From the NCBI GenBank assembly GCA_002422365.1, contig DIUO01000036.1:38759-102758 (forward strand): 64,000 bases of DNA. The letters run 5' to 3'. The notes beneath the pieces are model-generated. The model was not told the DNA's origin and searched no databases. It saw only the letters and a program-made list of their open reading frames with translations. This DNA comes from Proteobacteria bacterium UBA6156. GTDB lineage: Bacteria > Pseudomonadota > Alphaproteobacteria > UBA2136 > UBA6156. Both the position numbers and the translations under genes were made by a program. Positions 21,360 through 46,612 of the stretch are shown here, piece by piece. The number at the start of each line of letters is the position of its first letter. The first letter of the stretch is position 1.

Positions 21360-21447
21360 CCGGCGGAGAGGTGCCATTGCCCCTGTCAGGCGCAGGCGCT
21401 GGCACTCCACCCTATAAGACAAGACAGAAAGGATACCACCGGCCGAG

Positions 21448-22413: not shown

Positions 22414-22426
22414 CGGAGACCACCTC

Positions 22427-23587: not shown

Positions 23588-23605
23588 GCGGCAGGGGCGG
23601 GGCCT

Positions 23606-23965: not shown

Positions 23966-24070
23966 GCTCTGGGGGCGGTGCCGAATTCCCACAGCCCGCC
24001 GCGCCAAAACCGCCTTTCCGCCCGCACCGCCTTAACAAAGCCCGCTGCACACGGCACACTTGCATCCAGC

Positions 24071-27329: not shown

Positions 27330-27701
27330 ATGAATCAACGTACACTTCTCTTCAGCGCCGCCGCCGTGGCTGTCATGGCCCTCGCCGTCGCCAACCCCGC
27401 TTTTGCTCAGTCCGGTGGTGAAGCAGCTACAGCAGGGGCTGCTGCTGTCGATACACTTGTTGGTGCCATTACCGGTAACATCGGTTTGCTCATCGGTTTG
27501 GCCATTACTGTGGCGGGCCTCTGGGTCTGGATCATCGGTCAGAAAACCGGCGCTGGCCTCACTATGGTCATCGGTGGTGTACTCATCACCATGGCTCCGG
27601 GTTTGTTCAAGGGCGTCCGCGATATGGCCGTCGGTGTGGTAGGTCAATTCAGCGGATCAACAGTCTATGATGTTGACACCGCACGAGGTACGACTCGTTA
27701 A
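27330..27701 (+). CDS. VirB2/TraA/TrbC-like conjugative pilin precursor, copy 1
   Basis: 123 aa. RBS aaggag 8 nt upstream. Signal sequence ending AFA, then two hydrophobic helices separated by a short GQKTG loop. Confidence 0.6.
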   Translation: MNQRTLLFSAAAVAVMALAVANPAFAQSGGEAATAGAAAVDTLVGAITGNIGLLIGLAITVAGLWVWIIGQKTGAGLTMVIGGVLITMAPGLFKGVRDMAVGVVGQFSGSTVYDVDTARGTTR

Positions 27702-27708
27702 TCCAAGT

Positions 27709-28032
27709 ATGAACCTTCTCGGCAAAACCCTGGCAGTATGTGCGGCACTCCTTCTGAGTGCCGCTTCTGCCTATGCTGCCGAGACTTCCGACGTTGGTAA
27801 AGTCGAAGTAGAACTGCTGGTCAACATCTTCACCGGCAACATCGGCCTCGTTATTGGCTTCATCGTCACCATCATGGGCGTGTTTATGTTCATCAAGGGC
27901 GACAGCGGCGGTGCTGTCTACGTCGTCGTGCTGGGTGTGCTCATTACCATGCTTCCAGGCATTTACAATGGTTTAAGGCTTATTTTGTGCCCCATTGCCG
28001 AATCCCTCGGCGGCCAGTGTGGTGGCGGCTAA
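27709..28032 (+). CDS. VirB2/TraA/TrbC-like conjugative pilin precursor, copy 2
   Basis: 107 aa. Signal sequence ending AYA, two hydrophobic helices separated by KGDSGG, and a C-terminal Cys pair (CPIAESLGGQC). Same architecture as the upstream paralog. Confidence 0.6.
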   Translation: MNLLGKTLAVCAALLLSAASAYAAETSDVGKVEVELLVNIFTGNIGLVIGFIVTIMGVFMFIKGDSGGAVYVVVLGVLITMLPGIYNGLRLILCPIAESLGGQCGGG

Positions 28033-28036
28033 CGCC

Positions 28037-28306
28037 ATGCAAATGCGCGCCGTCCCCCGGAATATCGACAAACCCAACCGCACGCCGGAATACGCCGTAT
28101 CCTTCCTCTCCACTTACTACCTCACCCTATTTATCCTCAGCAAACCCCTTGTAGCTTTGTTGGCAGGTGCTCTTGCCACCTATGTTATGTATAAACTCAC
28201 GCTGGATAAACCCGAAGGCCTCGCCATGCGCTTGGCCTACCGCCACGTCAAGTTCGGCAAAATGCGCCCGGGGCCCAAGCACGCCCCCAAGCTGGAAGTC
28301 TCCTAG
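28037..28306 (+). CDS. small single-TM protein, TraL/VirB3-like by size and position
   Basis: 89 aa (F TraL is 91 aa), one TM. It sits immediately after the pilin genes, as in the F tra order traA-traL-traE-traK-traB. Confidence 0.45.
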   Translation: MQMRAVPRNIDKPNRTPEYAVSFLSTYYLTLFILSKPLVALLAGALATYVMYKLTLDKPEGLAMRLAYRHVKFGKMRPGPKHAPKLEVS

Positions 28307-28434
28307 ACGTCTCCTAACCGCAGCGCTGCCGCAAGCCTGCCACATGCAGGCGCACAAGCTGCCTGTTTTCACACCATCTCTCTCCCCAAGCCACCCAAAA
28401 GCGGGTAATCTTGCGGGCAAGGAGAAGAATATCC

Positions 28435-29091
28435 ATGGACTTTGTCGCACGCGCCGGTGCCGTTATCGACCGCGCCCACCGGGTAGCGGGCATTTTGCTG
28501 ATGTGCGTGCTGGTATTGGGGCTGGTGTCCACCTGCCAGCTTGTCAAAAACCAGCAACTGCAGGCCGAGATGAACGCCGCCCGCATCCGCTACCCGGTCA
28601 TTGTGGTGCCCGACGCCACCACCGGGGTCTACAGCCCCACCGAAGAAGACCGCCTCATATTCCTCTTTGCCGACTACGTCACCCAATCGCTCAATTCCTA
28701 TACACCCGAGAACATGAGCCGCCTCTATACCGACCTCCGCCCTTTCATGGGCCCGGCCCTGCAGGTCGACTCCGCCCCCCACTTCGAGCGTAAAATCCGC
28801 ACCACCGTCTCCGACCGCCGCTCCTCGTTCTTCGTGCCCGACCGCACCCAGGCCCCGAAAGTGGAAAAACGCCGCGTCAACGGGGTCGAGTTCCGCGATG
28901 TCGCCCTTGTCGGCCAGCTCAACAGCATGGTCGGCGGCACCCTGGCCGAGTCCACCCCGGTCGAGTACCAGATGACCTTCCAGAAGGTTTTCGCCAGCCC
29001 CAGCAACCCCTATGGCTTCCTGCTCACCAAATATGTCGAGAAACTGCTGCTCGACCCCAACAAAGCCCCGCAACTCCGCGCCCAACCCTAA
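28435..29091 (+). CDS. bitopic inner-membrane protein, TraE/VirB8-like by size and position
   Basis: ORF 28411..29091. The ATG MDFVARAG is preceded by the RBS aaggaga. One N-terminal TM plus an ~180-aa periplasmic domain (F TraE is 188 aa). Confidence 0.45.
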   Translation: MDFVARAGAVIDRAHRVAGILLMCVLVLGLVSTCQLVKNQQLQAEMNAARIRYPVIVVPDATTGVYSPTEEDRLIFLFADYVTQSLNSYTPENMSRLYTDLRPFMGPALQVDSAPHFERKIRTTVSDRRSSFFVPDRTQAPKVEKRRVNGVEFRDVALVGQLNSMVGGTLAESTPVEYQMTFQKVFASPSNPYGFLLTKYVEKLLLDPNKAPQLRAQP

Positions 29092-29112
29092 GCTCAATTA
29101 AGGAGACCCCAC

Positions 29113-29838
29113 ATGCGCCACGCCCTCATCCTCCTCGCCCTCCTCGCCGGGGCCTTCACCGTTGTCACTCCGCTGCTGGCCGACACCCTCGTCTGGCGCA
29201 GCCCCACCAAGCCGCTCACCATCGGGCTGTCCACGTCAGACTACACCCAGGTGATGTTCCCCGAGCCCATCAAGGCCGTGACACTTGAAAACCCCAGCTA
29301 CATCGACGGCAAACCCTTGGACGGCTACAACGGCCAGGCCATCATGTTCCAGTCCTTGCTGCCCAAAATGGCCACGCGCGGCTTCTTTGTAGGCCAGAGC
29401 GGCAACACCTACATCCTCATTCTCACCACCGACGTCCCCTACCGCACCTATATCGAAATTGTCGACGGCGTCGCCCTCAAACAAATGAAAGAAAGCATCG
29501 CCTCGCAAATGGCCCCGCACGACCTCGTCCGCGCCATGGCGATGGATGCCGACGTGGCGGGCATCACGCGCGAAACCTACGTCATTCCCAACTGGTTCCG
29601 GGGCAGCGGGATGACCTTCGACCTCTCCGAAGTCTGGCAATCGCCCACCATGACCGGCCTGGTGGTGCATGTGCGGAACGAAAACCCCACCCCGAACGAG
29701 GTCAACCTGCCCGCAGTGGTCATCCCCCAAACGTCCGAGTGGGGCAACCTGCGCTTTGCCAGCATGGAAAATCTCCGCCTGGCGCCCGCCGGCCAACCGA
29801 ACGACAAAGGCGTGCTGTTCCTCATCTTCCTGCGCTAA
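29113..29838 (+). CDS. periplasmic protein, TraK/VirB9-like by size and position
   Basis: 241 aa with a signal peptide (F TraK is 242 aa). Beta-rich composition. Its position between the TraE-like gene and the later TraB-like gene matches the F order. Confidence 0.5.
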   Translation: MRHALILLALLAGAFTVVTPLLADTLVWRSPTKPLTIGLSTSDYTQVMFPEPIKAVTLENPSYIDGKPLDGYNGQAIMFQSLLPKMATRGFFVGQSGNTYILILTTDVPYRTYIEIVDGVALKQMKESIASQMAPHDLVRAMAMDADVAGITRETYVIPNWFRGSGMTFDLSEVWQSPTMTGLVVHVRNENPTPNEVNLPAVVIPQTSEWGNLRFASMENLRLAPAGQPNDKGVLFLIFLR

Positions 29839-29943
29839 CTGCGTGGCAGCAAGGGAGCCAACGTGGCAAAAACCCCGCGCAGCCCAACCTCTATGCGGCC
29901 TTTCCCCTTGGCAAACCGGGCACACCGCCCCTATAACAGTGTC

Positions 29944-30705
29944 ATGAACCTTTCTCGGGTCGTGCTGGCATGCTGCTTTATCGCCGCCATAAGTATGGCG
30001 TGGCCCGCGCGTGCCGACTACGACAACGACCCCTTCGACCCCCTCATAGCCCGCGACGCCTGGATGCTCATCGCCCGTGCCGAGCGGGAAAACGAAATCC
30101 CGGCAGGCCTGCTGCACGCCATGAGCTTAGTGGAAACCGGCAAAGGTATCCGCGGCTGGGTGCTGCCCTGGCCCTACACGGTCGGGGTCAACGGCACCGG
30201 CACGCAGCGCTTCACCAGCCGAGACGAAGCCCTCGCCGCTCTCAGCCGCTACCGCAAGCTCGGCTTTGTGCGCTACAACCTCACCGCCCAGGGGGTGCGC
30301 CTCAGCAAGGCCACCTCGGTGCAGGTCGCGGCGGCGCTCGGCGGGCTTCCGGCCAGCAGCGTCATCACGCTGGAAGGCATCAATTTCGGCCGCCGCTTCA
30401 ACAGCGAGACTGAAGCCGCCACCTTCCTCCGCAACATGTTCGCCCAGGGCTACCGCAATGTCGATGTCGGCATGATGCAAATCAACTGGCGCGTCCACAG
30501 CCAGCACTTCCGCAGTATCGAAGACGCCCTCAACCCTTCCACCAACCTCAACTACGCCGTGCGCTACTTGCTGGAGCACCGCCAAACCCGCGACTGGTGG
30601 GGCTCGGTCGGCCGTTACCACAGCGGCACCAGCCGCTACGCTAGCCGCTATATTCGTAATGTTTACAACATGTACCTTCGCATCCACCGGGTGAGCACCA
30701 GCTGA
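29944..30705 (+). CDS. lytic transglycosylase (SLT domain; VirB1/PilT(R64)-like role)
   Basis: ORF 29863..30705. Start at MNLSRVV (29944) with a signal sequence. SLT motifs AMSLVETG, DVGMMQINWRVH, NLNYAVRYL. Confidence 0.8.
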   Translation: MNLSRVVLACCFIAAISMAWPARADYDNDPFDPLIARDAWMLIARAERENEIPAGLLHAMSLVETGKGIRGWVLPWPYTVGVNGTGTQRFTSRDEALAALSRYRKLGFVRYNLTAQGVRLSKATSVQVAAALGGLPASSVITLEGINFGRRFNSETEAATFLRNMFAQGYRNVDVGMMQINWRVHSQHFRSIEDALNPSTNLNYAVRYLLEHRQTRDWWGSVGRYHSGTSRYASRYIRNVYNMYLRIHRVSTS

Positions 30706-32522
30706 TGACCGCCCCCCACCCGCCCGCACCCGCCTGGACGCCCCAACAGCAGCACGTGCTGGCCCACACCGGCAGCAGCCTGGTGGTGGGGGTGCCCGGC
30801 AGCGGCAAAACGGTGCTGTTGTTGGCGCAGGCCGAGCACCTGCTGGCCCAGGGCCACAAAGTCGCTCTGGCCACCTTTTCCTTCCGCAGCCACCAATATG
30901 TCAAATCGCTGGCAAGCCCGGCTCTGGTTAAGGTGTGGGATAAACTCAGCAGCGGCACCCTTCGCGACCTCGCCATCCAGCAGCTGCACACCGCCGGGCA
31001 AAGTTTCAGCTTTGCCAGCAACAATCAGGTGAGGGAAATCCTGCGCACCCTCATCCCCGCCCAGGCGTTTCCGGGCACCCTGGCCGACGCCGAGCACATC
31101 ATCCGCAGCGCCAAGGCCCGCGCCAAAAAATTGCCGGAGTCCGACCGCTACTACCCCTTCGTCCAAGCCTACCAAGCGCGGCTGGAAGAACTCGGCCTGG
31201 CCGACCGCCACGACATCGTCCGCCGCCATGTGCTGGGCATGCGCGATGGCTCCGTCCCGCCGCTGCCCGTCAGCCACCTGCTGCTGGATAACGTCCAGGA
31301 CGCCACCGAACTTCAGCTCATCTGGCTGCAAATGCACTTGGCCCACAGCATCACGCTCATGCTGGTGGGCGACGACGACCTCACCGCTTTCGGGCAAGAC
31401 GGTGCCCGTGGCCCGGCCGCCTTGGAGCAAATCGAAAGCTGGGGCGATATCACCCGCTTTAATCTCAGCCACAGCCACCGCCTGGCCCCGGCGTTGCTGC
31501 CGGCGGTGGCCAAGGTGGCGCGGCAACTGCGCACGCGCATTGCCAAAACGCCCGAGGCTGCTGCTCCCACACCCTCCCAGGCCGCAGTCATTCCCGCCAC
31601 CCTGCGGGTCGAGCACTTCCCCAATGCCCCCGCCGAGCATGTCTTTCTGGCCGAATACTGCCAGGCGCTGCTGCGCGGGCAACCCAATGCCGCGCGCGGC
31701 ACGGTCGGCATCATCACCCGCACCCATTTCGAGTCCGCCTGCATCACCCACGCCCTCCGCCGCCACGGCCTCAACCCCGCCAGCTACGCGCGGCTTATCT
31801 GGGAGGAACGTACCCCCCAAATCATCCTCTCCCTGCTCTATCTCATGCTCGGCCAGGGCAATAATGGCCACTTGCACTTGGTGTTGCTGGGCTTTGGGGT
31901 TCCCGCCCCGGCGGTTATGGCGTTGTTCCAGGCGGGCCTGCGGGCCGAGTCCTGGGGCGCCTCCGGCTTTGCCCTGCCGCCGCTCACGCACGAATCCCCT
32001 ACCACCGTCGCCGCCTTGCAGCAGGTGCGGCGCAGCCTGCGCACCGCCCACCAGTTGCTGCACATGCCGCAAACCCCGGCGCCCGAGAACCCCCTGACCC
32101 CCCGCACCATCTTCAAAGCTCTGGTGGCCGACCTTCTCCCGCACTTGCCGGAGTCCGAACACCCCGCCGCCCTGCTGGCCACCGACATGCTCCTCACCCT
32201 GTCCGGTAAACTGACGGAAGTTCTCCCCCGCGTCCGTACCGAAACCCTGCCGGATATGGCCAGCCCCATCGTGGTCGCACCGGTGCGCGAAACGCGCAAC
32301 CAGCAGTTCGGCACCGTCATCATTCCCTATGCCTCGGCCACCACCTGGCCACACCCGCCTTCGGCCTTGCTGGGGGCCGAGCCCGACCACGACCGCCGCC
32401 TCATGTACCTCGCGCTTACCCGCAGCGCCGGGTCGCTGGTCTTCACCCGCCACACGCCTGAGGCTTCGCCTTACGTGCAAGAGCTCCAGCAAAACCTCAA
32501 GCAGCAAACCCGCAAAGGCTAG
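30705..32522 (+). CDS. UvrD/Rep-family superfamily-1 DNA helicase
   Basis: 605 aa. Walker A GVPGSGKT; motif VI-like LMYLALTRSAGSLVF near the C-terminus; UvrD-like 1A/2A layout. The start overlaps the SLT gene stop by 1 nt (TGATG). Confidence 0.8.
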   Translation: MTAPHPPAPAWTPQQQHVLAHTGSSLVVGVPGSGKTVLLLAQAEHLLAQGHKVALATFSFRSHQYVKSLASPALVKVWDKLSSGTLRDLAIQQLHTAGQSFSFASNNQVREILRTLIPAQAFPGTLADAEHIIRSAKARAKKLPESDRYYPFVQAYQARLEELGLADRHDIVRRHVLGMRDGSVPPLPVSHLLLDNVQDATELQLIWLQMHLAHSITLMLVGDDDLTAFGQDGARGPAALEQIESWGDITRFNLSHSHRLAPALLPAVAKVARQLRTRIAKTPEAAAPTPSQAAVIPATLRVEHFPNAPAEHVFLAEYCQALLRGQPNAARGTVGIITRTHFESACITHALRRHGLNPASYARLIWEERTPQIILSLLYLMLGQGNNGHLHLVLLGFGVPAPAVMALFQAGLRAESWGASGFALPPLTHESPTTVAALQQVRRSLRTAHQLLHMPQTPAPENPLTPRTIFKALVADLLPHLPESEHPAALLATDMLLTLSGKLTEVLPRVRTETLPDMASPIVVAPVRETRNQQFGTVIIPYASATTWPHPPSALLGAEPDHDRRLMYLALTRSAGSLVFTRHTPEASPYVQELQQNLKQQTRKG

Positions 32523-32633
32523 CTCTGCCGCGGTGTTGCCCGTCAAAGGCTACCTTAAGGCTACCTTTTGGCCACACCCTGTCAGTTTTTTGCGGCCACA
32601 GGCGCTCACGTAAACTGACACCCCCCTCAAACC

Positions 32634-35039
32634 GTGGCATGCTGGGCCCAACAACAAAAAAGCATCGTCTCCCGCATGAAGAAGGCCACCAAAGCTGCCC
32701 CCCGCACCTCTGCCGCAGCCCGCAAATCTCCCGCCGCACCCTCCGGCGGCGCTAAATCCGCCAAGGTCGCTGCGGCGTCAGCGTCCGCCGGTAAAGTGTC
32801 GCCCAAAGTATTGCCCAAGGCTGTGCCTATGGCCCCGGCTGTAAAAGCGGCGGCGGCGGTTAAGGCACCCACCAAAGGCCAGCAACGCCAAATCGCTCGG
32901 GTGCAGGCCGAGGTCGATACCAAAAAAGCCAACGACGAAGGCTTCCAGCTGGCGCGCAAAAACGCCGTCAAATACCTGCACAGCCGCCGCCAGGCCATTT
33001 TCGCGCTGGCCCGGCACTTCCACCTGGATGCCGACGATCTTCAACAAGAAGCCTACGAAGTGCTGCTCACCTGCCTGCGCGACTTCAACCCCCTCTACAC
33101 CAAGGCCGACGGCTCCACCGTCAGCGTCCAGTTCAACACCTTTTTCGGCAACCGCTTAGAGGGCAAGGCGCTGGAGCAACGCAACCGCGACCCCGAATAC
33201 CAGGCCCGCCAGGCGCACGTGCAAGACATGTCCGACGAAGACCGCGCCGATTTCCGTAAAAACCCGCCCTTGCTGGTGCAACACCTCGACCAGGAAACCA
33301 CCCTGCAAGAAAACCTGCGCGGCGAAGTTGCCGCCGCCCAGCGCTCCCGCCAAACCAACATGGCCCTCAAGGTCGCGCAAGACAGCTTCATCGAGAAAAA
33401 ACTCAACGATCTCATCGCCGCCGAGCGCGACGACAAACGCCGCGCCGCCCTCATGCACGTCAAGGTCGGCGGGGTCAGCAGTTTTGAAGAAATTGCCTAC
33501 CACTTCGGCGTCACCGACAGCCGCGCCAGCCAGATCCTCAACGAGCTGATGGACGCCTTCTACGTCCAGCGCCTGCTCGACGGCGATCTCAAAAGCGTGA
33601 TGTACGACTTCCGCAAGCTCAGCATGCAGCCCAAGCGCAGCCAGCGCCTGCTGGAAGACGCCATGCGCCACGCCCCCGCCCCCCGCGCCGCCGACATCGC
33701 CGCCCTCTTCGGCACCGACTATCCCGAACTGCGCGAGGTGCTCACCTCGCTGCCGCGCCCCGGCCTGGCCACGGCGGCAGTGGCTGAAAATACCGGCGAA
33801 GCGCCCACCGAATCCGGCCCGGCCCTCCCCGCCCAACTCACCCCCGCCGAAGACGACCAGTTCCCGCTGCAAGCCGTGGAATGGCGCGACATTTCCGGCC
33901 TCACCGCCCTGGGCGTGGTGTTCCGCCCCACGCCCAGCCAGGCGCCAGAAGATATGGCCCATATCCGCCAAATATCCGCTCACCCGGCCGAGGCCTGGCC
34001 GCCCCTGCTCATCACGCCGGAAGGCGGAGTTATCGATGGCGAACGCCGCATTGCCGCCGCCCGCGCCAAGGGCATCACCCGCCTGCTGTGCCAGGTGCGC
34101 ACCATTCCCAGCCCGGCGCTGGCGCGCCAGTTGCGCGTGTGCCTCAACAGCCGCGTGCGCCCGCTCGATAAAATCGAACTCTACTTCGCCATCGGCGCCC
34201 TGTCCGAGCTCGGCCTCACCCAGGGCGTCATCGCTCAGGCCCTCGGCACCAGCCGCCCGAACGTGATCGTCTACGCCAAAGTGCGCGAAAAGGCCTCCCC
34301 CCGCCTGCGCCAGCTGTTCGAAGACGGCCTCATCCAGATCACCAACGCCAGCAGCGCGGCCGACCTCCCCGTGCAAGCCCAAGACGACATGGCCGACTTC
34401 ATCCGCCAATACGGCGCGGGCTGGGGCCGTGGCCCCCAGTTTAACGAGCTTTATGCCGCCGCCGCCGAAGGCCAGATTGCCGCACTGGTGCCCCCCCAAC
34501 TGGGCGGCCCCCAGCCCATGCCCGGCACGGTGCTGCCCATGCCGCGTTTCCCCGCGCCGCAGCACATCGAATCCCCTACCTCCGGCGCCCAATTGGTGGC
34601 CCCTCCCGGAGCACTATCGCCCACCCTGGCGGCAGCCCTTAAAAAACGGCAAGAGGCGCTCGAAACCGCCCTGCGCGACAGCGAAATCTGGGCCCGCCAG
34701 CGCGAAGCCACCATTGCCAGCCAAACCAGCCAGCTGCACGACCTCCGCCAGCAACTGGAAAGCTACAAGCGCGAGCTCGAAGCCCAAAGCCTGCTGCAAC
34801 ATGGCGATGCCGCCACCATGGCCAATTACCTGAAAGAAATGAAAGCCTTCTACGCGGTGCAAGAGCGCCTCGCCTCGGCCATCTACCAGCTGGAAAAAAC
34901 CCAAACCGCCGTGCGCAGCCTCAATCTCACCCACCGCCAAACGGTGGAACTTGAGCACCTGCTGGAAAAAATCGCCACCCTCCAAACCGCTTTGCGCGTG
35001 CAACTGGTCAAATCCCCCCCGCCGGAAAACCCGCGTTAG
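32634..35039 (+). CDS. multidomain fusion: Lys/Ala-rich H1-like tail, ECF-type sigma-70 region 2 and region 4, ParB/Srx N-terminal domain with HTH, and a C-terminal coiled coil
   Basis: 801 aa. Region-2-like DLQQEAYEVLLTCLRDFNP...FFGNRLEGKALEQRNRD. Region-4-like SSFEEIAYHFGVTDSRASQILNEL. ParB-N-like PLLITPEGGVIDGERRIAAARAKGITRL. HTH LGLTQGVIAQALGTSRPNV. The start is uncertain (32634 or the ATG at 32676). Confidence 0.65.
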   Translation: MACWAQQQKSIVSRMKKATKAAPRTSAAARKSPAAPSGGAKSAKVAAASASAGKVSPKVLPKAVPMAPAVKAAAAVKAPTKGQQRQIARVQAEVDTKKANDEGFQLARKNAVKYLHSRRQAIFALARHFHLDADDLQQEAYEVLLTCLRDFNPLYTKADGSTVSVQFNTFFGNRLEGKALEQRNRDPEYQARQAHVQDMSDEDRADFRKNPPLLVQHLDQETTLQENLRGEVAAAQRSRQTNMALKVAQDSFIEKKLNDLIAAERDDKRRAALMHVKVGGVSSFEEIAYHFGVTDSRASQILNELMDAFYVQRLLDGDLKSVMYDFRKLSMQPKRSQRLLEDAMRHAPAPRAADIAALFGTDYPELREVLTSLPRPGLATAAVAENTGEAPTESGPALPAQLTPAEDDQFPLQAVEWRDISGLTALGVVFRPTPSQAPEDMAHIRQISAHPAEAWPPLLITPEGGVIDGERRIAAARAKGITRLLCQVRTIPSPALARQLRVCLNSRVRPLDKIELYFAIGALSELGLTQGVIAQALGTSRPNVIVYAKVREKASPRLRQLFEDGLIQITNASSAADLPVQAQDDMADFIRQYGAGWGRGPQFNELYAAAAEGQIAALVPPQLGGPQPMPGTVLPMPRFPAPQHIESPTSGAQLVAPPGALSPTLAAALKKRQEALETALRDSEIWARQREATIASQTSQLHDLRQQLESYKRELEAQSLLQHGDAATMANYLKEMKAFYAVQERLASAIYQLEKTQTAVRSLNLTHRQTVELEHLLEKIATLQTALRVQLVKSPPPENPR

Positions 35040-35079
35040 CACTTGTCAAATGGCCTTTCCCGCACCAAACTTTAAGAAG

Positions 35080-36888
35080 ATGAGAATATTCGCCCACTTT
35101 GGTATATGTCTAGCGCTTACAGTAGCGTGTTTTATAACAATATCCTACAGTTATGCTCAAAATGGTCAGGGTGGCGGCACCAATACCTCTAATAATGTCC
35201 CAAGTGCCGACCTCTACCTCTCCCCCCGGCTGCCCGATAGCTATTCCTCCAGTCTCCGCTTCCCCCCCAGCGGCGCCATCAACATTTCTCCTAACGAGAA
35301 TAACGGGCCCATTTCCAACACTTTCGACCCCACCCTTGGCGCGGTCGGCGAAATCAGCAACTCACTCGGCTGCGCCGGGGTCGGTCAGGGAGAATTCACC
35401 AGCGGCCTCTTTAACATGCCGGAGGTTTATACCAAATTTCAGCAAGATGTTCAGTCTTCGCTCTCCAAGCAACTCCTGTCGCTCAACTTTGTCATGCCGC
35501 AAACCTCGGCCCTGTTCGACCAACTCAACACCATCGGCAACCAACGCTACGACCAATTCCAGCGCGGCTGCACCGTTACACCCGTTCAGGCCGACGCCAA
35601 ACAGAACTACATGCTGGCCTGCGTCGAGAAACTCATTCCGGAACGCGAGACAATCATAGAAGAGACGAACAATCAGCAGGCGCAAACCGCGCGTATCCCA
35701 GAAGATCAGATCGGCCCTATGGCTTACGCCCAAGCCTGGGAAATCTGCGCCAACCAGTACGTCAGCAACACCACTGCGATGGAAGTCCGGACGGAAAGAC
35801 TGACAGCTTATTATACGAAACTCCGTGAAGCCGAACGCGTCGACCTCGCCATACGCCCGTTACTGTGCCAAATCACGCAGGAGGGTGACGAAGACGGTGC
35901 CGGTTGCTGGGCCAAATTCCTCATCCCGCAAGTCCGTATTTGTCTAGGCAACAATCTGGAAGGTGGCTGCACCGAAGGTGTTTACGGCGTCAAAGAACCA
36001 CTCGTACCCATGCAACGCCTCTTCGACACGATGCGTTTCATCATGGAAAATGATGTCATTCAAAACCGTGTTGTGCCGTTCAACAACGGCATCCGCGCGC
36101 TGAACGCCTCCACCCGCCAGCAAGCTGCCCGAGAAGCCACCATCGTCATGAGCACAACCAAACTGACAGGAAGCAGCACCACACTGGTCGGCCAGGTAGC
36201 TGTTATGCCGACCGAGGCGGTACGCGATTTTCAGTTAAATTATCTCAGCTGCAAAAACAACGATGTTCTCAACGGCTATCGTCAATACAAACGCTTTATC
36301 GAAAAGCAAATGAACCAAAATGGGGCTACGTCCGATATACCCGACCTCCTTCCCTTTAATTTTGCAGTGATAGAATCCACTATAGAAAAAATGGAGCTCG
36401 CCGCCGAAGAGAATAGCACGTCCGACGAAGCCGACATTAAAGCCGTCTCGGCCCTGCTGGAATCGGCCATGGGCTGCACCGCCAACCAATCCATCCCGAT
36501 CTTCGACCCCAACATCACCGCAGCCCTGCAAACCACCTGCTCCGACGAAGACATCTATGCCTTCTATAGTATTGCGGGCAACGATGTTGCCGCCGCATCC
36601 ACACGTGATGTCTACCGCTACTTGAACTTCAAACTCAAGCAAGCCTATACACGCTTAATGACAGAAGCCATGGTGCCTGTGTCCGACACCACCAACACCT
36701 CGGTTAGCCCCACATATGGGCCAGAGCTGAACGCCAAATTCGCGCAGGTCGTCAAAGATGTGATGATTCCCTATACCGAAACACAAATCGAACGCCTTAA
36801 CGACATCAATGCGTCACGCGGCCAACTGGGGCAGCTGGTGAACGAAATCTACGCCAGTAAAAACGGCTGCAACCCAAAAACTCCGTAA
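35080..36888 (+). CDS. secreted Cys-rich protein (14 Cys), TraN-sized (602 aa) candidate mating-pair-stabilisation/outer-membrane protein
   Basis: ORF 34951..36888. Signal sequence MRIFAHFGICLALTVACFITISYSYA. Multiple spaced Cys residues. 602 aa, equal to F TraN; no motif-level confirmation is possible by eye. Confidence 0.45.
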   Translation: MRIFAHFGICLALTVACFITISYSYAQNGQGGGTNTSNNVPSADLYLSPRLPDSYSSSLRFPPSGAINISPNENNGPISNTFDPTLGAVGEISNSLGCAGVGQGEFTSGLFNMPEVYTKFQQDVQSSLSKQLLSLNFVMPQTSALFDQLNTIGNQRYDQFQRGCTVTPVQADAKQNYMLACVEKLIPERETIIEETNNQQAQTARIPEDQIGPMAYAQAWEICANQYVSNTTAMEVRTERLTAYYTKLREAERVDLAIRPLLCQITQEGDEDGAGCWAKFLIPQVRICLGNNLEGGCTEGVYGVKEPLVPMQRLFDTMRFIMENDVIQNRVVPFNNGIRALNASTRQQAAREATIVMSTTKLTGSSTTLVGQVAVMPTEAVRDFQLNYLSCKNNDVLNGYRQYKRFIEKQMNQNGATSDIPDLLPFNFAVIESTIEKMELAAEENSTSDEADIKAVSALLESAMGCTANQSIPIFDPNITAALQTTCSDEDIYAFYSIAGNDVAAASTRDVYRYLNFKLKQAYTRLMTEAMVPVSDTTNTSVSPTYGPELNAKFAQVVKDVMIPYTETQIERLNDINASRGQLGQLVNEIYASKNGCNPKTP

Positions 36889-37009
36889 CCCTACGGCCCC
36901 ACCGCCCGTTCTTTCACCATCATGTCTCTCGGCCACACACGATAACGGCTGACAACGCCGAAAAACTTGGGCATTATCCTGGCCAACGGTAACCAGGTAA
37001 CAACAATTC

Positions 37010-39190
37010 GTGGCGAATATGCAGCAGGTGATGACGGAGAGCGGGCAGGTGCCCCCGGTGTTGGCCGGGCGGTGGGACCTTCGCCTGGGCTATCACCCCT
37101 CGCTCAAGCGGCACTTGCCGATGCTAGCCGACCTGCCGCTGTTCGATACCACCGCAGCGCATCACCTTCATCTGCTGGAGCTCCCTCTTGCCCCCGCCCT
37201 CAGCGGTCATCACATGGTGGCCGATTCCGGTCTCATGGCGGCCGCTATGCCGCCGGGCGGCATGGCCGAGGCGGTCGACGAATATCCTCTTGCCCCCGTG
37301 TTCGTGAGAGACCTCTGCGGCCGTCCGGTGCACACCGGGCTTATGCCCTTGCCCGCCCCCCCTACGGTGCCGCTGTTTCCGCCCGGCTGCCGCCATCTGC
37401 CGGCCAGTCACCCGCTTTCATCGCAGCTGGAACGTCTGGTCTGGATGACCGCCCGCCGCCTGGAGTGCGCGCCCGTCTGCGGCTCTGCGGCCCTGGCCGG
37501 AGAACCCGACACCCGCCTCCGCGCCATGGTGGCCCAACCCCAAACCTACCCCTACAAGCTCCGCCCGGATACCTTCTATGCCGACGGCTGGCGCTTGCCG
37601 GTGGTGCCGCGCGTTTATGCCGTACCGGCGCCGCCGGTGCAGGCGCAGGCCGCCGCCGATGAACTGCTGGCCCGCTGGCAGGCCCGCCCCACGGGGCAAG
37701 ACTACGAAACCTTCTACGACGCCAACAACGGCGACGCCTGGTTTGAAGAGCTGTTTGAAAAAGGCTGCACCGTCATTCCCACGCTCGAGGCCTACAACGG
37801 CCGCTACCATGTCGGAGACGACTACGTCGCCACCGCCGTAGACCCCGGCCGCGCCGTAGCAGGCCTGCACGAAATCATCGAACACAGCGACTCCGACACC
37901 CCCGCCGGTACTATTCTCGATGTCCGCACCCCCGGCTGGGTCACCTCCACGGGCGTACATCCCGCGCAGGTAGTGGTCAGCAACGGCAGCGGCTGGCAGG
38001 CGCCGTCGGTGCCCTTACCACCATTGCCCAACCGCCGCTTGCCGCACCCGCGTGTCGGCGGCGCCTGGGGGGCTGTCTGGCTGCCCACCCACCCCGGCCA
38101 CTTTGCCGAACCCGCCCTTTACGACTGGAACATGACCGGCCATTTTGTGCAGGTATCCGGCCCCTTGTGGGATCCTCTCCATTACATCTACACCAGCACC
38201 GAAGCCCTCACGCGCGCCTTCCGCCGCCCGCACCCGCAGGTGCCGGGGGCCTATGTGCTGCCCCCGTCGCTCAAGCTCCGCTTTCATCCGCTGGCCCCTC
38301 AAACCTGGTACGACACCCTCAACGAGCGCACCGCCCAACAACGCCAGACCGACCCCGCCCACCCGCTCTACGGCAGTACAATCGATACCCTGCCGCTGGG
38401 CCGCCAGGTGGCTCCGGCCGGGTATCACCCGTTGCCTTGGGCGCTGGAGTACGAACTCGATCCCGCCCACTTCCCCAGCCTGCATCCCGCGCACCTCGAA
38501 GCGCCATGCCCGCCCGATCTCGAGCCGCGCCTCATGCCGCCCGCCCAGCTGGCCGATCCCGCAGCCTACCTCGGCTACCACGTCGCGGTCACCGAGCCGA
38601 TGCGCGAAGCTCAGCAACAAGCGGCCGCAGCGCCCTTCAGCGAAGCAAGTTGCGACATAAAGGAAACACTCCTTCCCCTCACTTTGCATACCCAACCCGA
38701 GCGGGCGCTCCCTGCTTATGTGCCGGATATGCCCGCCAGCCAGCTTGCCGTGAACATCAAGCGCCTGTTTGCTGCCCGGGCTTACCGCCAGCAGTTGCAG
38801 GCGTTGGCCGAGGCCTGGAATCAACCCGGCCTGCCGGCCGCCTTCTACCAATTCCGCGAGTCTGCCTTGGCGTGGCGCCGCTTGCGCTACCGCCTCTTCA
38901 CCAAGTATGCCGCCACCTGGCAGCAGGCCGCCGCCGTGGGGATAGACCTCCCCACCGCCGAGCAGCTGGTGCCGGAGTCCGATCCCTTGCAGCACCAGCG
39001 GGTGCAGCGCGCCCGTCTGGGCGGCCTGGGGGTGGTGCCGCCACTGCCTCTCCTGCGGGCGGACGGTTTGCCATCGCCTGCGGCACAGGCTAAACTTGCA
39101 CCTGCACGGCGGCGCAGCCAGGGCAAGGGGCTACCTGCTTCTCCCGCTAAGCCGCGCCAAACCGTTAACAATCCTGGGGAAAATACCTAG
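37010..39190 (+). CDS. large Pro-rich hypothetical protein (726 aa), no signal peptide or TM
   Basis: A long ORF in the operon orientation with coding-like GC3 bias. 13% Pro with many PxxP segments. No recognisable catalytic motifs. Confidence 0.45.
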   Translation: MANMQQVMTESGQVPPVLAGRWDLRLGYHPSLKRHLPMLADLPLFDTTAAHHLHLLELPLAPALSGHHMVADSGLMAAAMPPGGMAEAVDEYPLAPVFVRDLCGRPVHTGLMPLPAPPTVPLFPPGCRHLPASHPLSSQLERLVWMTARRLECAPVCGSAALAGEPDTRLRAMVAQPQTYPYKLRPDTFYADGWRLPVVPRVYAVPAPPVQAQAAADELLARWQARPTGQDYETFYDANNGDAWFEELFEKGCTVIPTLEAYNGRYHVGDDYVATAVDPGRAVAGLHEIIEHSDSDTPAGTILDVRTPGWVTSTGVHPAQVVVSNGSGWQAPSVPLPPLPNRRLPHPRVGGAWGAVWLPTHPGHFAEPALYDWNMTGHFVQVSGPLWDPLHYIYTSTEALTRAFRRPHPQVPGAYVLPPSLKLRFHPLAPQTWYDTLNERTAQQRQTDPAHPLYGSTIDTLPLGRQVAPAGYHPLPWALEYELDPAHFPSLHPAHLEAPCPPDLEPRLMPPAQLADPAAYLGYHVAVTEPMREAQQQAAAAPFSEASCDIKETLLPLTLHTQPERALPAYVPDMPASQLAVNIKRLFAARAYRQQLQALAEAWNQPGLPAAFYQFRESALAWRRLRYRLFTKYAATWQQAAAVGIDLPTAEQLVPESDPLQHQRVQRARLGGLGVVPPLPLLRADGLPSPAAQAKLAPARRRSQGKGLPASPAKPRQTVNNPGENT

Positions 39191-40627
39191 ATGGCCACCG
39201 AACCCACACCCGATATCATCGCCCGCCCCGGTGCCGGCGGCAAATCCGGCGGTGCCGAATCTCCCGGCGCGCTGGAGAAATTCCGTGCCTTGCCGCCCAA
39301 AATGCAGGGTGCCATCGTCATTGTCGGCCTTATCGGAGTGTTTTATGTCATCAGCTCGCTGCGTGGCGGCGGTGCGCCCTCGTCGCGCACGGTGGTCAAT
39401 TTGGGCCAGCCCAACGGCCGGGAGGTCAGCGCCACGTTCTCAGGTATCGAAACCGACCGCCCGGCCGTCATGCAAAGCGTCTTCGAGCAAAACCGCCGCG
39501 ACATGGCCGAGCTCCGCAGTAAAATCGAAAGCGACTTCGCCCTGCGCGACAAAGCCCTGCAAGATGCCCTGAACCAGAACCAGGAACTGCAACGCCAAAT
39601 GCAGCAGATGATGGGCGACTTCACCACCGAATTGAAAAACATCCAAATCGAACGCGCCCGCGACAACGAGCGCCTTGCCCAACTGGCCGACCAGCAAAAG
39701 CAACTCGAACTCAACGCACCCGTCGACGGCCTCGGCGTCGTGGCCGGAGAAGCCCCGCGCCGCCGCGCCATTTCCCAGGTTGTGCTGGGGGGAGGGGTCA
39801 TGGAGAACATCCGCAGCCCTTTCGGTCCGGCGGGGGCGGCAACGGGCAGCCACCTTACCAGCAGCGGTAACGTGGTCGCCAACCCCGCCGAACGGGCAAA
39901 AGAAGAACGCCTGCCCTTCATCCCGCCGCTCGGCTTTGTGCGCGCCACCCTGCTCAACGGGGTCGACGCCCTGATCGGCGGCACCAACACTCCCGCCCTG
40001 GCCCGTCTGTCCGGCACCTACAAAACCGCCATGAACAGCACCATCTCGCTCGATGGCTGCGTAGCGCTGCTGGAATTTTCAGGCAACATCTCCACCGAGC
40101 GCGCCACCGGCCGCCCCATGCGGATGACCTGCGTCTACCCCGACGGCGGCGCCGCCACCTACAGCCTCTCCGGCTACGCGGTCGACTCCATCGACGGCAT
40201 CATCGGCATCCCCGGCGTGCTGTACGAGGGCGACCCCACCCGTATCGCCGCCGCCATGCTGGCCGAGTTTGCCGCAGGCGTGGCCGAAATTGTCCAAGAC
40301 AACACCAACTCCAGCGTTACCACCACCAACAACGAGGGCACCACCTCCACAGTCCAACTGCCCAGCAGTGGCGAGGTGGCCGAGCAAATCATCGGCGGCT
40401 CGGCTAAGGTTATGGGCTCGCTGCGCGACTACATGCAAAAGCGCGCCGACCGTGTCCAATCGTTTATCCGCCTCGATGCCACGCGCGAAGTCGACCTCGT
40501 CATTCTCAACGGCACCGAACTGCGTAAATCCGGCAATGTCTGGAGCGCCCTCTTCGACGGCAATACCGACGCGGGCCTACCGTCGCAACAGCTGAACACC
40601 ACCGCAACGCCGGCACAGGCGGAATAA
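39191..40627 (+). CDS. TraB/VirB10/TrbI-family protein
   Basis: 478 aa (F TraB is 475 aa). A cytoplasmic N-terminus, one TM (GAIVIVGLIGVFYVISSL), a coiled coil, a Pro-rich spacer, and a C-terminal beta domain with LPFIPPLGFVRATLLNGVDA, resembling VirB10-family C-terminal domains. Confidence 0.65.
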   Translation: MATEPTPDIIARPGAGGKSGGAESPGALEKFRALPPKMQGAIVIVGLIGVFYVISSLRGGGAPSSRTVVNLGQPNGREVSATFSGIETDRPAVMQSVFEQNRRDMAELRSKIESDFALRDKALQDALNQNQELQRQMQQMMGDFTTELKNIQIERARDNERLAQLADQQKQLELNAPVDGLGVVAGEAPRRRAISQVVLGGGVMENIRSPFGPAGAATGSHLTSSGNVVANPAERAKEERLPFIPPLGFVRATLLNGVDALIGGTNTPALARLSGTYKTAMNSTISLDGCVALLEFSGNISTERATGRPMRMTCVYPDGGAATYSLSGYAVDSIDGIIGIPGVLYEGDPTRIAAAMLAEFAAGVAEIVQDNTNSSVTTTNNEGTTSTVQLPSSGEVAEQIIGGSAKVMGSLRDYMQKRADRVQSFIRLDATREVDLVILNGTELRKSGNVWSALFDGNTDAGLPSQQLNTTATPAQAE

Positions 40628-40641
40628 GGGAGAAGACCACC

Positions 40642-41118
40642 ATGACCTCACGCATCGCACCTCAACTTGGCTATGTCCTTCTGGCGGCTGCAACCGGCCT
40701 CGCGGGCTGCAAATACTACGGCAGCGCCCTCCCGCCGGAATACCCCATGAGCATGGGCGACGCCCTCTCGGTCGCCAACGACCAACGCACCACCACCGGC
40801 GGCAGCCAGCGCCCAGTGGTGCGGCACCCCACCCGCCCGCAAATCGAGCGTCCCAGCTACCTGCCGGAAAAAGAACTGGCGCTGGTGACCCCACCCAAAA
40901 CCCTGCTGGTCTGGACCTACCCGCACGTCACCGAAGACAACACCCGCGTCTTTGGTAACTGGAGCACCATCTTCCTCACCGACCGCTACGAGTGGGCCCG
41001 CCCCAGCAACGAACTCCCGGCGCGGGAAGACGATGCCGGCACCGTAGCAGGCCGCCCCAACTTAGGCTTGGCGCCGCAAGCTCTCCCGGTCTTACCGGCG
41101 GCCATGCCCACACCCTAA
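40642..41118 (+). CDS. lipoprotein, TraV-like by size and position
   Basis: 158 aa with lipobox LAGC. It lies between the TraB-like and TraC-like genes, as traV does in the F B-(P,D,G)-V-(R)-C order. Confidence 0.5.
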   Translation: MTSRIAPQLGYVLLAAATGLAGCKYYGSALPPEYPMSMGDALSVANDQRTTTGGSQRPVVRHPTRPQIERPSYLPEKELALVTPPKTLLVWTYPHVTEDNTRVFGNWSTIFLTDRYEWARPSNELPAREDDAGTVAGRPNLGLAPQALPVLPAAMPTP

Positions 41119-41162
41119 GCCGGGGGTAAACCGTCACCAATAAAAAAAGATACGAGCAGGCC

Positions 41163-43760
41163 ATGCTGAACAAGGATACCTACGCCCCGCCCCGCCCCGA
41201 CCTTCTGGGCGAGCAGCTGCCGTATTTCGAGTTCAACGACGACAGCTCCTCGCAATACTACCGCATGCACCTGCTGAAGGACGGCGGCATCGGTATTTGC
41301 TGGAAGTGCCCCGTACCCGCCAGCTATTCGTATGACGACGGCTACGGCTCCACCACCAACGAGTTCCGTACCTTTATGGAAAGCGTACCCACCGACTACG
41401 AAGCGCAAGTCGTCATCACCTCGCACAACAATCTGGTCAAGCCTCTCCAGAATTACCTCGAGGCCACACCCGATCTCGAACGCGCCAAACTGCTGCGCCA
41501 GTCGCGGGCCGAGAAAATCCGCGACGCAGGTTACCGGGGCTATGCCACCTCCGAGCGCGGCTTCACCCGCCTGCGCGATACCTACATGGTCATCAGCCTG
41601 CGCTGCCCCGAAACCACCGAACGCTACGGCCTCCTCAAAGGCACCATCGAAATCACCTACCAGGCCATGGCGTTAATGATGGTCTCGCTGGGCATGGACC
41701 TCTCCAAAATGGCAGGCCGCTTTATGGGAGACCTCGTCAAAACCGCCATGATTGAATTCCGCGAGGCCGTGCTGGCGGTCGAAAACACCCTCAACGGCAT
41801 GTTCGAAATCCACCGCATGTCGCTGGAAGAACTGAAAGACCACTACTGGCAAGCCTATTGCCCCAGCTACAAAGACCCCGCGCAGAAAATCTCCATCGAC
41901 CCCCTCCGTCCCTTCGACGAACAAATCTTTCCGCTGCCGATCGAAAACAGCCACGACATCATCAAAATCGGCGACGACTACCACGGCACCGTCATGCTGG
42001 CCATGATGCCCGACAGCGTCATGGCCGACTATCTCGGCACCATCCGCCGCACGCTCAATTCGCAAACCACGTTTTTCTGCAATCTCACCTCGGTCAACCA
42101 GACCGCCGAAAAGGTCAAGCTCACCCTCGGTGCCGCCATGCGCAAACGCGTCGCCAGCGCCTTTAACAAAGAGGAAGCCGATCTCTACGCGCAAGAAGCC
42201 TCCGACGTTAAAACCCGCCTCTACAGCGGTCGCAAAATCGTCCGTGCCATGGTGGGGCTCATCATCCACGGCAAAACGCGCGAGGAAGTCGAAGACAACC
42301 TCATGCGCATCGCCTCGCAATACAAAAAGCTCTCCGTGGTGCCGGATATCGAAAAAACCATGGCTCTCCAGGCTCTCGCCTACAGCTGGCCACTCACCTG
42401 GCGCAACAAGTTTTCCGCCCCCTTTGCCCGCACCCGGCGGGTGATGAGCGACGACATCACCGACCTCCTGCCCATCCATGGCCACTGGGGCGGCCACGGG
42501 CGGCCCTATACCAAGTACGAAAAACAAATTCCTCAGTCGCTCTACGTCAACCGCGACGGCGAAATCTCCTTCTTCGACCACACCAGCGGCGACTTCATGA
42601 ACTGGCACTACGCCATTACGGGTACGTCAGGCTCCGGTAAAAGCTTTGCAGTCACCGACCTCGTGCTCCAGCTCTTCAGCGCGGGGATCGAAAAACAATA
42701 CCTGATGACCATCAAAGACGACTACGACCGCTTCGGCGAGACCATGGGCAAGCTCATCATCATCGACCTCGACCGCAAAGACGTCTGCATCAATCCCTTT
42801 ACCGGAGAAATCTCCAAACACCGCCTCCAGCAGTGGACAACCACGGTGGAGCTGATGATCGCTAAGGGCGACTACGAAATCTCGCGCGTCGAGCAACGGC
42901 TCATCGAGCAAGTGGTGCAATACGCCTACGATATCGTCCCGCCCGACGACGTGCTGCGTCCCACCTGGATCCAGCAGGCGTATCTGAAGTTCCCCTATTC
43001 CGACGAAGAAAGCCGCCAAGCCGGCATGGCCATGGCACGAGAAATCGGCTCCTATTGCGAAAACGGCATCTACGGCCATCTCTTCGACGCCCCGCCCAGC
43101 TTCACCGAAAAAGACAAGCTGGTGGTCTTCAACCTGCAAAACGTGCTGAACGAAAAAATCTCCGACGTCATCATCAACGCGCTGTTCACCATGATCGACA
43201 ACGTCATGTACCTCGGCAACCGGGGCGAAAAAAAGCACCTCTTGTGCGACGAAATGGTCAGCATGATCTCCTCCAAGGGCGGTGCCGCCGTGGCCAACCA
43301 GCTCAAGCGCGCCTTCCGCACCTACCGCTCGCTCAACTGCATGTGCGGCATCTCGTCGCAGAACGAGGAAGACCTGACCACCGAAGTCGGCCAGGCCATC
43401 ATCGGGAACATCACCAAGCGCCTCATCCTCAAGCCCCGGCGCGAGATGATCCCCATGCTGATGGAATCCTTGGGCCTGCGCGCGGAACGCCACCAAAGCA
43501 ACATTGCCAGTCTCGATACCCGCCCGGGTTTCTTCTCCGAATTCTATCTCATGTCGCCGCACGGCGAGGTCGTCTGCCGCCTCATCCCGGACAAACTCAC
43601 CTACGCCCTCGCCACCACCACGCCCGACGACGTCGCCGAAATCAAACGCATCCGCGACGAAGCCCGCTGCGATTGGTGGCAAGCCACGGTCACCTTTGCC
43701 GAACGCTTCCCCCACGGTGTCCGCGCCGCCCGCTCCTCCGCCCGCGCCCGGGGTGTTTAA
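41163..43760 (+). CDS. TraC/VirB4-family conjugative T4SS ATPase
   Basis: 865 aa (F TraC is 875 aa). Walker A ITGTSGSGKSF; Walker B KHLLCDEMVS; long N-terminal VirB4-type domain. Confidence 0.85.
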   Translation: MLNKDTYAPPRPDLLGEQLPYFEFNDDSSSQYYRMHLLKDGGIGICWKCPVPASYSYDDGYGSTTNEFRTFMESVPTDYEAQVVITSHNNLVKPLQNYLEATPDLERAKLLRQSRAEKIRDAGYRGYATSERGFTRLRDTYMVISLRCPETTERYGLLKGTIEITYQAMALMMVSLGMDLSKMAGRFMGDLVKTAMIEFREAVLAVENTLNGMFEIHRMSLEELKDHYWQAYCPSYKDPAQKISIDPLRPFDEQIFPLPIENSHDIIKIGDDYHGTVMLAMMPDSVMADYLGTIRRTLNSQTTFFCNLTSVNQTAEKVKLTLGAAMRKRVASAFNKEEADLYAQEASDVKTRLYSGRKIVRAMVGLIIHGKTREEVEDNLMRIASQYKKLSVVPDIEKTMALQALAYSWPLTWRNKFSAPFARTRRVMSDDITDLLPIHGHWGGHGRPYTKYEKQIPQSLYVNRDGEISFFDHTSGDFMNWHYAITGTSGSGKSFAVTDLVLQLFSAGIEKQYLMTIKDDYDRFGETMGKLIIIDLDRKDVCINPFTGEISKHRLQQWTTTVELMIAKGDYEISRVEQRLIEQVVQYAYDIVPPDDVLRPTWIQQAYLKFPYSDEESRQAGMAMAREIGSYCENGIYGHLFDAPPSFTEKDKLVVFNLQNVLNEKISDVIINALFTMIDNVMYLGNRGEKKHLLCDEMVSMISSKGGAAVANQLKRAFRTYRSLNCMCGISSQNEEDLTTEVGQAIIGNITKRLILKPRREMIPMLMESLGLRAERHQSNIASLDTRPGFFSEFYLMSPHGEVVCRLIPDKLTYALATTTPDDVAEIKRIRDEARCDWWQATVTFAERFPHGVRAARSSARARGV

Positions 43761-46498: not shown

Positions 46499-46612
46499 CA
46501 CGAACGTGCCAAGCGCACCCCAACCGAACAAATACTTGCCGTCACCGCGCTTGCGCCGTAAAATGCACACCAGATTTCTCTGAGACCGCCCGAAACACCG
46601 AAAGGCCGAGCC

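Follow-up and report, generated by a model that had tools for sequence, protein, structure and literature searches.

Is the F-like type IV secretion system (T4SS) cluster on contig DIUO01000036.1 of Proteobacteria bacterium UBA6156 a conjugation cluster broken by inserted genes, or a machine to which those genes belong? We interrogated the 64,000-nucleotide stretch at positions 38,759 to 102,758 of this contig (the window), where a sequence-only reading had described pilin, traL-, traE- and traK-like genes split from traB-, traV- and traC-like genes by a 9-kb insertion of non-T4SS genes. Thirteen tightly packed, co-directional open reading frames (ORFs), all on the + strand, lie at 27330-43760 where that reading had placed them, within a locus of ~43 kb (about 5.2-47.5 kb of the window) that combines a coupling protein, type IV pilus genes and the T4SS. 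The explanation that we favor, with moderate confidence, is an old, chromosomally fixed T4SS of the F lineage (mating-pair formation class F, MPF_F), in which the genes between traK and traB (the K-B block) are native and which was probably repurposed from conjugation. Its carriers form a clade of uncultured, probably flagellated Alphaproteobacteria. The core genes of the cluster are as follows.

27330..27701, + strand: pilin 1, VirB2/TrbC-type (Pfam TrbC/VirB2 6.5e-8, above cutoff)
27667..28032, + strand: pilin 2, a paralogue of pilin 1 (Pfam TrbC/VirB2 1.7e-5)
27995..28306, + strand: TraL/VirB3-like small membrane protein, 103 amino acids (aa) (Pfam TraL 0.013)
28411..29091, + strand: TraE/VirB8-like bitopic protein, 219 aa from the ATG at 28432 (TIGR02761 0.0026)
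29113..29838, + strand: TraK/VirB9-like outer-membrane core protein, 241 aa, secreted (AlphaFold2 and Foldseek)
39191..40627, + strand: TraB/VirB10-like protein (NCBIfam F-type TraB 2e-19; Pfam TrbI 2.6e-11)
40642..41118, + strand: TraV/VirB7-like lipoprotein, 158 aa (LAGC lipobox; invariant C-terminal motif)
41163..43760, + strand: TraC/VirB4 ATPase (TIGR02746, TraC F-type, 6e-61; Walker A and B intact)

The small proteins proved similar to their proposed F counterparts by several routes. For the TraE, TraL and TraV profile comparisons with hhalign, plasmid pOS401 (AP026971, from Comamonadaceae bacterium OS-4), whose uncharacterised transfer region is the closest plasmid system, was used as a bridge and other F-type plasmids as references; cross-family controls score at chance. 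The TraE profile of the clade matches canonical TraE at 84.8% probability (6.6e-6) and TraE of pOS401, which itself passes the Pfam TraE threshold (4.9e-10), at 97.4%. The TraL profile matches the pOS401 TraL-like protein (87.5%, 3.6e-6), which matches Pfam TraL at 0.007. The lipoprotein profile matches the pOS401 lipoprotein (95%, 4e-8), and the latter matches canonical TraV (89.5%, 2e-6); when TraV was sought directly there was no significant match, and Pfam TraV appears in 1 of 33 lipoprotein orthologues, at 0.099. An AlphaFold2 model of the TraK-like protein built from 40 homologues has a mean confidence score (pLDDT) of 88, and in Foldseek its first PDB match is 7spb_C1 of the F outer-membrane core complex (1.3e-13), followed by 7oko_3 of pED208 (2.5e-12) and then by VirB9, DotH and TrwF. 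In this predicted structure, the 241-aa protein is confirmed as TraK by fold. Profile searches against PDB sequences gave nothing significant for the TraK-like and lipoprotein families, or for the Cys-rich, 726-aa and HD-like families described below.

The best plasmid matches listed for TraC belong to F-type TraC or to the TraC family, with 21-25% identity, save the top match, which is the unannotated pOS401 protein. The TraB protein has >150 homologues, every one from uncultured metagenome-assembled genomes (MAGs). Both pilins belong to TrbC/VirB2 (PF04956) and neither has a match to the F-type pilin TraA in Pfam or NCBIfam, so we rejected their assignment as TraA-type. Pilin 1 carries a signal peptide and two hydrophobic segments, and tandem pilin genes are found in one relative (L043) too. 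In another relative (L022, 990-2224) there is a tandem pair of TraE-like genes. Taken together, the core genes are supported as F-type homologues (TraL, TraE, TraK, TraB, TraV and TraC) in F order, as the sequence-only reading had proposed, and this order recurs in relatives.

A system of the MPF_G class (ICEHin1056/PFGI-1 tfc) was considered in place of the F lineage. MPF_G elements have a comparable order of small membrane proteins, lipoprotein and VirB4, and TraC has a secondary match to TIGR03744 (5e-20). Its score with the F-type model TIGR02746 is nonetheless 206 bits (curated cutoff 567), against 71 bits for the MPF_G family PFL_4706 and 57 bits for VirB4_CagE; for TraB the figures are 70 bits with F TraB and 17 with TIGR03752. 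The small proteins show no match to any PFL_47xx family, and the best structural matches are TraK of F and pED208. Membership in MPF_G is thus highly improbable, and the comparison of F and MPF_G models came out in favor of the lineage named at the outset.

We then asked whether the five genes between traK and traB were inserted.

29863..30705, + strand: VirB1-like lytic transglycosylase, SLT (Pfam SLT 1e-6, 28.8 bits, cutoff 21.3; NCBIfam VirB1 4.5e-4)
30705..32522, + strand: UvrD-like superfamily 1 (SF1) protein (Pfam UvrD-helicase 3.2e-12)
32634..35039, + strand: sigma/ParB protein, 801 aa (sigma-70-like N-terminal region; ParB/KorB-like domain with helix-turn-helix, HTH; C-terminal coiled coil)
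35080..36888, + strand: Cys-rich secreted protein, 602 aa (signal peptide; 18 Cys counted in a longer 645-aa form of the ORF)
37010..39190, + strand: cytoplasmic protein, 726 aa, 12.9% Pro (GrpE-like sub-domain; otherwise mostly without structural match)

An alignment of TraB recovered 33 loci from GTDB species genomes (numbered here with the prefix L), to which metagenome contigs were added, and gene order was determined by tblastn. The loci recovered belong to MAGs of uncultured Alphaproteobacteria, several of them mislabelled. Most of the loci that reach far enough share the order traK-SLT-UvrD-sigma/ParB-Cys-rich-726aa-traB-traV-traC-866aa-297aa, in relatives down to 37% TraB identity, and two further contigs agree; the order is not due to chance, being found again in those GTDB genomes and metagenome contigs that were examined. 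The block order is kept in L005, L007, L008, L011, L015-L017, L037 and L043, and the block is present with variations in L012 (where the helicase gene is missing), L022, L026, L032, L034, L044 and others. In a marine subclade SLT is absent and the 726-aa gene is inverted. L030 (1-3820) reads traK-SLT-traB-traV, with a small reverse ORF alone between SLT and traB and with traC and the 297-aa gene rearranged after them; this arrangement is either a real variant or a misassembly.

These results show that the K-B block is an inherited module and not an insertion in this genome. The insertion reading is not supported, because the block order is conserved, because the GC content at third codon positions (GC3) is host-like in all of its genes except the Cys-rich one, because the SLT is VirB1-like and because the UvrD-like protein has a homologue (4e-23) in the helicase that pOS401 encodes beside its coupling protein. 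The SLT, which had been counted among the non-T4SS genes, is therefore a regular T4SS component. What stands of the original proposal on the block is that it looks system-specific.

Relatives also indicate which part may be missing from the window. In deeper relatives a polytopic membrane protein of 937-1271 aa is encoded between the Cys-rich and 726-aa genes. L008 is a close relative of the window organism, and a contig of its MAG (L045, VAFM01000002, 4334-12112) encodes an 1882-aa multi-pass membrane protein outside the locus, elsewhere in the chromosome and directly 5' of a 703-aa paralogue of the 726-aa protein; the transmembrane region of the 1882-aa protein is homologous to the K-B block genes of the deeper relatives. 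This large membrane protein is a candidate for an extended equivalent of VirB6/TraG, the sole sequence hint being a marginal match to a TraG_N-like protein of pOS401.

Is the locus mobile? On the left (hemN-rdgB-rph) and on the right (GT1-GT4-rmlA, after which the window continues with rmlB and nth), the flanking genes are common to the relatives, and identity declines jointly in the locus and its flanks: 92/87/63% for the coupling protein against 77/57/50% for rph and 57/50/37% for hemN, and 90/80% for TraC against 87/71% for GT1. GC3 of the locus genes (0.79-0.86) equals that of flanking housekeeping genes. Scans of the window for tRNAs and Rfam families were empty, no integrase or flanking direct repeats were found at the locus, and no window protein matches a relaxase family in Pfam or NCBIfam. 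The loci of relatives lie on contigs of 0.5-1.8 Mb. As far as these genomes indicate, the locus is fixed, vertically inherited and under strong constraint rather than a mobile element, because the flanks are shared, divergence is parallel, GC3 is that of the host, tRNA, repeats, integrase and relaxase are not found and the contigs are large.

The alternative is an integrative conjugative element or integrated plasmid, functional or recently decayed, with the K-B block as acquired cargo or accessory genes. In its favor, the core genes find their nearest relatives in plasmid transfer systems, L030 and the marine subclade either lack the block or have it rearranged, and the Cys-rich, TraF-like and both pilin genes are lower in GC3. 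It is opposed by host-equal GC3 and the lack of integrase, tRNA and flanking repeats at the locus, and by the shared flanks, the divergence that parallels housekeeping genes and the mostly conserved block order. We consider such an element improbable, and less likely than a system for DNA secretion or uptake (see below). The GC3 difference itself is 0.55-0.64 in the pilin, Cys-rich and TraF-like genes (0.55 in pilin 1, 0.64 in the Cys-rich gene) against about 0.8 in all other genes, a possible sign that exposed components turn over or are replaced faster.

The proposed departure from conjugation rests on two proteins with homologues in plasmid systems, the UvrD-like protein and a protein encoded near the coupling protein upstream of the pilus genes.

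5238..8142, + strand: TraF/thioredoxin-like protein, small membrane protein and soluble VirD4-type coupling protein (Pfam TraF 2.4e-7, thioredoxin; SXT TraD model 8e-26)
10826..12310, - strand: homologue of HD-domain proteins, membrane-anchored, 494 aa (tblastn to Pseudomonas-type megaplasmid proteins, 7e-7 to 5e-2)

The UvrD-like protein of the window keeps its Walker A motif (GSGKT), and its motifs II and III read DNVQD and DDDLTAF. In motif II, nearly all chromosomal orthologues have D(N/G)xQD in place of DExQD, and the one that diverges most (L022) is without the motif altogether; in motif III, most have DDD(L/V/I/T)T in place of DDDQS. By contrast, the pOS401 helicase retains DEMQD and DDDQSIY, so that the degeneration of motifs II and III is confined to the chromosomal clade. 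Based on these residues, the UvrD-like protein is a probable pseudo-helicase. A similar change is seen in the 494-aa protein, some of whose megaplasmid homologues are annotated as HD domain-containing: HHAD and SHD(I/M)DK of the plasmid HD proteins are replaced by KD/QD in the chromosomal clade, the loss again being confined to that clade. MOBH relaxases of F-like systems are HD-type enzymes (PMC12857230); the 494-aa homologue in the window is without the HD residues. The coupling protein (63-92% identity to its counterparts at the same chromosomal site in relatives) has intact Walker A and B motifs. Repurposing from conjugation is suggested because catalytic residues are gone from both the helicase-like and the HD-domain protein and no recognisable relaxase is present.

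The same genes bear on another explanation, that the T4SS still handles DNA without being self-transmissible, either secreting it like the gonococcal genetic island or taking it up like Helicobacter ComB, with the ParB-, helicase- and HD-like proteins processing or marking DNA. The coupling protein, the ParB domain with its intact GERRxxAA motif, the UvrD-like protein and the HD homologue are all conserved in the locus, and a pilus machine that contains a secretin adjoins it. ComB-type uptake systems do without a coupling protein, which counts against the uptake form. There is also precedent for secretion, as the gonococcal island encodes an F-like T4SS with an HD-type MOBH relaxase and transglycosylases and secretes single-stranded DNA (PMC12857230). 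Set against DNA handling in either form, the catalytic residues of the helicase-like and HD-like proteins are lost here and kept in the plasmid homologues, and scans with family models found no recognisable relaxase among the window proteins. We regard this explanation as unlikely, though it keeps some weight because ParB-like, coupling and helicase-like proteins are retained.

Returning to the repurposed F-lineage machine, the remaining block genes suggest what it may do. In the 801-aa protein, residues 116-306 resemble sigma-70/extracytoplasmic function sigma factors (TIGR02937 1.6e-6, 27.8 bits against a cutoff of 42.9); single orthologues match Sigma70_r4 (1.8e-4) and Sigma70_r2 (0.008), and a profile search against the PDB gave no sigma match. 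Its ParB domain has an intact CTP-binding motif (GERRIAAA, residues 469-476) followed by an HTH; it matches PDB Spo0J 6sdk at 2e-5 across GERRIAAA, the profile matches Spo0J 1vz0 (1.1e-6) and ParB chains, and orthologues match the ParB_N and KorB families. The Cys-rich protein has just 53 clusters among 1.84 billion proteins and, among the loci examined, carriers of its gene are from this clade alone. It has no Pfam or PDB sequence match and evolves fastest in the locus, with orthologue identity of 20-56% against 66-90% for neighbours; fast evolution and low GC3 would suit an exposed protein that contacts a target. Two other identities were rejected for this protein: it has no TraN match and a marginal TraH match of one orthologue (0.018) was judged noise, and a comparison with the giant membrane protein says that it is not a truncated form of it. 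The GrpE-like sub-domain of the 726-aa protein is predicted from structure; a profile comparison with E. coli GrpE gave no informative score.

We think that the machine has probably been turned to another task that depends on contact, most likely the delivery of proteins or adhesion to other cells, together with the pilus. In the mechanism that we envisage, TraL, TraE, TraK, TraB and TraV would form the envelope channel, TraC and the coupling protein would supply power, the SLT would open the peptidoglycan and the two VirB2-type pilins would make a pilus. The sigma/ParB protein would control or mark the locus, the Cys-rich protein would work at the surface of the cell, recognising a target for instance, and the 726-aa protein may be a cytoplasmic adaptor or chaperone partner. 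More tentatively, and as a possibility that we hold with limited confidence, an F-lineage T4SS captured by the chromosome became a non-conjugative contact machine for delivery, attack or attachment that works with a pilus, kept its pseudoenzymes and gained the sigma-ParB, Cys-rich and 726-aa parts, the last possibly linking large substrates to Hsp70.

Several points weigh against this interpretation. The identity of TraV and TraL is suggested by position, by lipobox or topology and by transitive profiles, and for TraV the support is transitive and positional because direct searches were not significant. The sigma-like region of the 801-aa protein scores below curated cutoffs. That ATP hydrolysis is lost along with the Glu of motif II is a prediction drawn only by analogy with SF1 helicases that have been studied, the plasmid HD-domain proteins are not proven relaxases, and a relaxase could be present that is too divergent for detection. 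Coupling, ParB-like and helicase-like proteins would also be expected in a DNA-transfer system. The block need not lie between traK and traB, because L030 lacks it between SLT and traB and the marine subclade has it partly inverted, and the window itself encodes no VirB6-like protein. Finally, the host organisms are uncultured and the functions proposed are read from genes.

Comparison with known systems helps to place the locus. It shares with the Tra systems of F and pED208 the L-E-K-B-V-C order, the TraK fold (7spb, 7oko), best scores of TraB and TraC with F-type models and a TraF-like protein, and differs from them in its VirB2/TrbC-type pilins, in the five genes between traK and traB and in being chromosomal and vertical. 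Among the F-specific proteins, TraW, TraU, TrbC, TraN, TraH and TraG have no match in the sizeable ORFs of the locus, where only the TraF/thioredoxin-like protein (5238-6293) was found.

pOS401 supplies the best plasmid homologues of the TraL, TraE, TraK, TraB, TraC, TraF-like, coupling and UvrD-like proteins; it too has a lipoprotein between TraB and TraC and type IV pilus-type ATPase genes upstream, and it has an SLT at the start of the operon. Unlike the window system it is plasmid-borne, its L-E-K-B-V-C genes are contiguous, its TraF-like, coupling-protein and UvrD-like genes lie downstream with the helicase beside the coupling protein, and it has a TraG_N-like membrane protein. It has no homologues of the sigma/ParB, Cys-rich or 726-aa proteins. 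A UvrD-domain gene lies near the tra genes of an F-type Acinetobacter plasmid too, likened here by domain label only.

An interrupted F order is in itself ordinary, because the MOBH-associated MPF_F clusters of IncC, pQBR55 and pAsa4b have a large gene between traVA and traC. In these clusters and in SXT/R391-like elements, which are among the best TraC matches listed, large non-core genes interrupt the F order: in IncC and pQBR55 an Ig-like or DUF4165 gene of about 5.5-6.7 kb follows traVA, and dsbC and traC come next, and in pAsa4b a 1.8 kb gene and an insertion sequence (IS) element lie between traVA and traC. They differ from the window in the site and content of the interruption, in being mobile, in their recognised MOBH relaxase and in possessing the complete set of F-specific genes. 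The gonococcal genetic island, which includes partition-type proteins, resembles the locus as a chromosomal F-lineage T4SS with a role other than plasmid transfer and with an HD-type protein; it is, however, horizontally acquired and has an active TraI relaxase and the full F-type set, whereas here the HD motif is lost and conservation is clade-wide. The 801-aa protein shares with the CTP-dependent DNA clamps KorB and ParB the ParB N-terminal domain with its GERRxRAA motif and the HTH, and differs in that these are fused to a sigma-70-like region at the N terminus and to a long coiled coil at the C terminus.

The pilus genes adjoin the T4SS on its 5' side, and two further conserved genes follow traC.

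12400..27255, + strand: module like a type IV pilus or type II secretion system (Pfam and NCBIfam: TcpQ-like, MshL-like secretin, GspE/PilB ATPase, GspF/PilC, prepilin-like and unassigned proteins)
43898..47506, + strand: conserved genes for 866-aa and 297-aa proteins, 3' of traC in nearly all relatives

The pilus module lies directly 5' of the pilin genes in L043, L044, L047 and L048 too. A type IV pilus and a T4SS are also paired in the transfer systems of the R64 thin pilus and PAPI-1; the window differs from the PilN/PilQ type of R64 in that its secretin and ATPase resemble MshL, GspE and GspF. In the two megaplasmids inspected, pSMJS2 and pPma4326F, the pilus cluster adjoins the coupling protein with the HD gene between them on the opposite strand, as in the window. 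pPma4326F is typed as MPF_I, and the megaplasmid coupling proteins are without detectable similarity to that of the window by tblastn. We infer descent of the system from a plasmid transfer apparatus in which a pilus and an F-like T4SS were already combined. Within 23978-27255, the 580-aa and 511-aa proteins encoded 5' of the pilins have a common C-terminal domain of ~90 residues, and both are conserved in relatives.

The 866-aa protein (43898-46498) is 16% Pro, with PKPEPK-type repeats and a single transmembrane segment; conservation is seen in its C-terminal ~240 residues, which show a faint GspC-like match. No gene of the locus is as conserved as that of the cytoplasmic 297-aa protein (46613-47506; 50-95% identity, except 37% in L018), a protein without family or PDB match. 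Neither the 602-, 726-, 866- and 297-aa proteins nor their orthologues have a Pfam or NCBIfam assignment.

The window as a whole has a GC content of ~0.61 and carries nearly all of its genes on the + strand. Promoter-like sites lie 5' of pilin 1 (27278-27305), of the 726-aa gene and of the 297-aa gene, and no convincing + strand terminators were found between the genes of the locus. The coding strand is biased to C over G throughout the window (e.g. 12000-52000), with GC skew of -0.1 to -0.24 and GC3 skew of -0.2 to -0.5; the bias is equal in housekeeping and locus genes and is unusual for co-oriented genes. Beyond the locus, a small ORF holds three tandem 66-nt repeats (54653-54846) encoding a peptide repeat of the type GNFANNPQRAA..GRKGG. 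A 744-aa flagellin-like gene, fliF and fliG follow at 58234-63618, and the host is probably motile because the window encodes these three proteins.

The literature on T4SSs of Micavibrio and Micavibrionales yielded no earlier description of the clade or the system. It is an unusual combination: a deep vertical lineage related to F without TraA, TraW, TraU, TrbC, TraN, TraH and TraG, coupled to a pilus machine, with seemingly dead helicase- and HD-like proteins and new families. Conserved families that the tools used here did not place are the 726-, 602-, 866- and 297-aa proteins, to which the sigma/ParB fusion is added. For annotation, genes between core T4SS genes should not be called insertions without comparative data. 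The paired plasmid and chromosomal homologues offer a comparison that may reveal which parts a conjugation machine can do without after losing DNA transfer. Known roles of F-type T4SSs are conjugation and, in Neisseria, DNA secretion. If true, an F-related system that is vertically inherited and, across the clade, as conserved as its flanking housekeeping genes or more so would be a different use of this lineage, and the inactivation of its DNA-processing homologues would likewise point to such a use.

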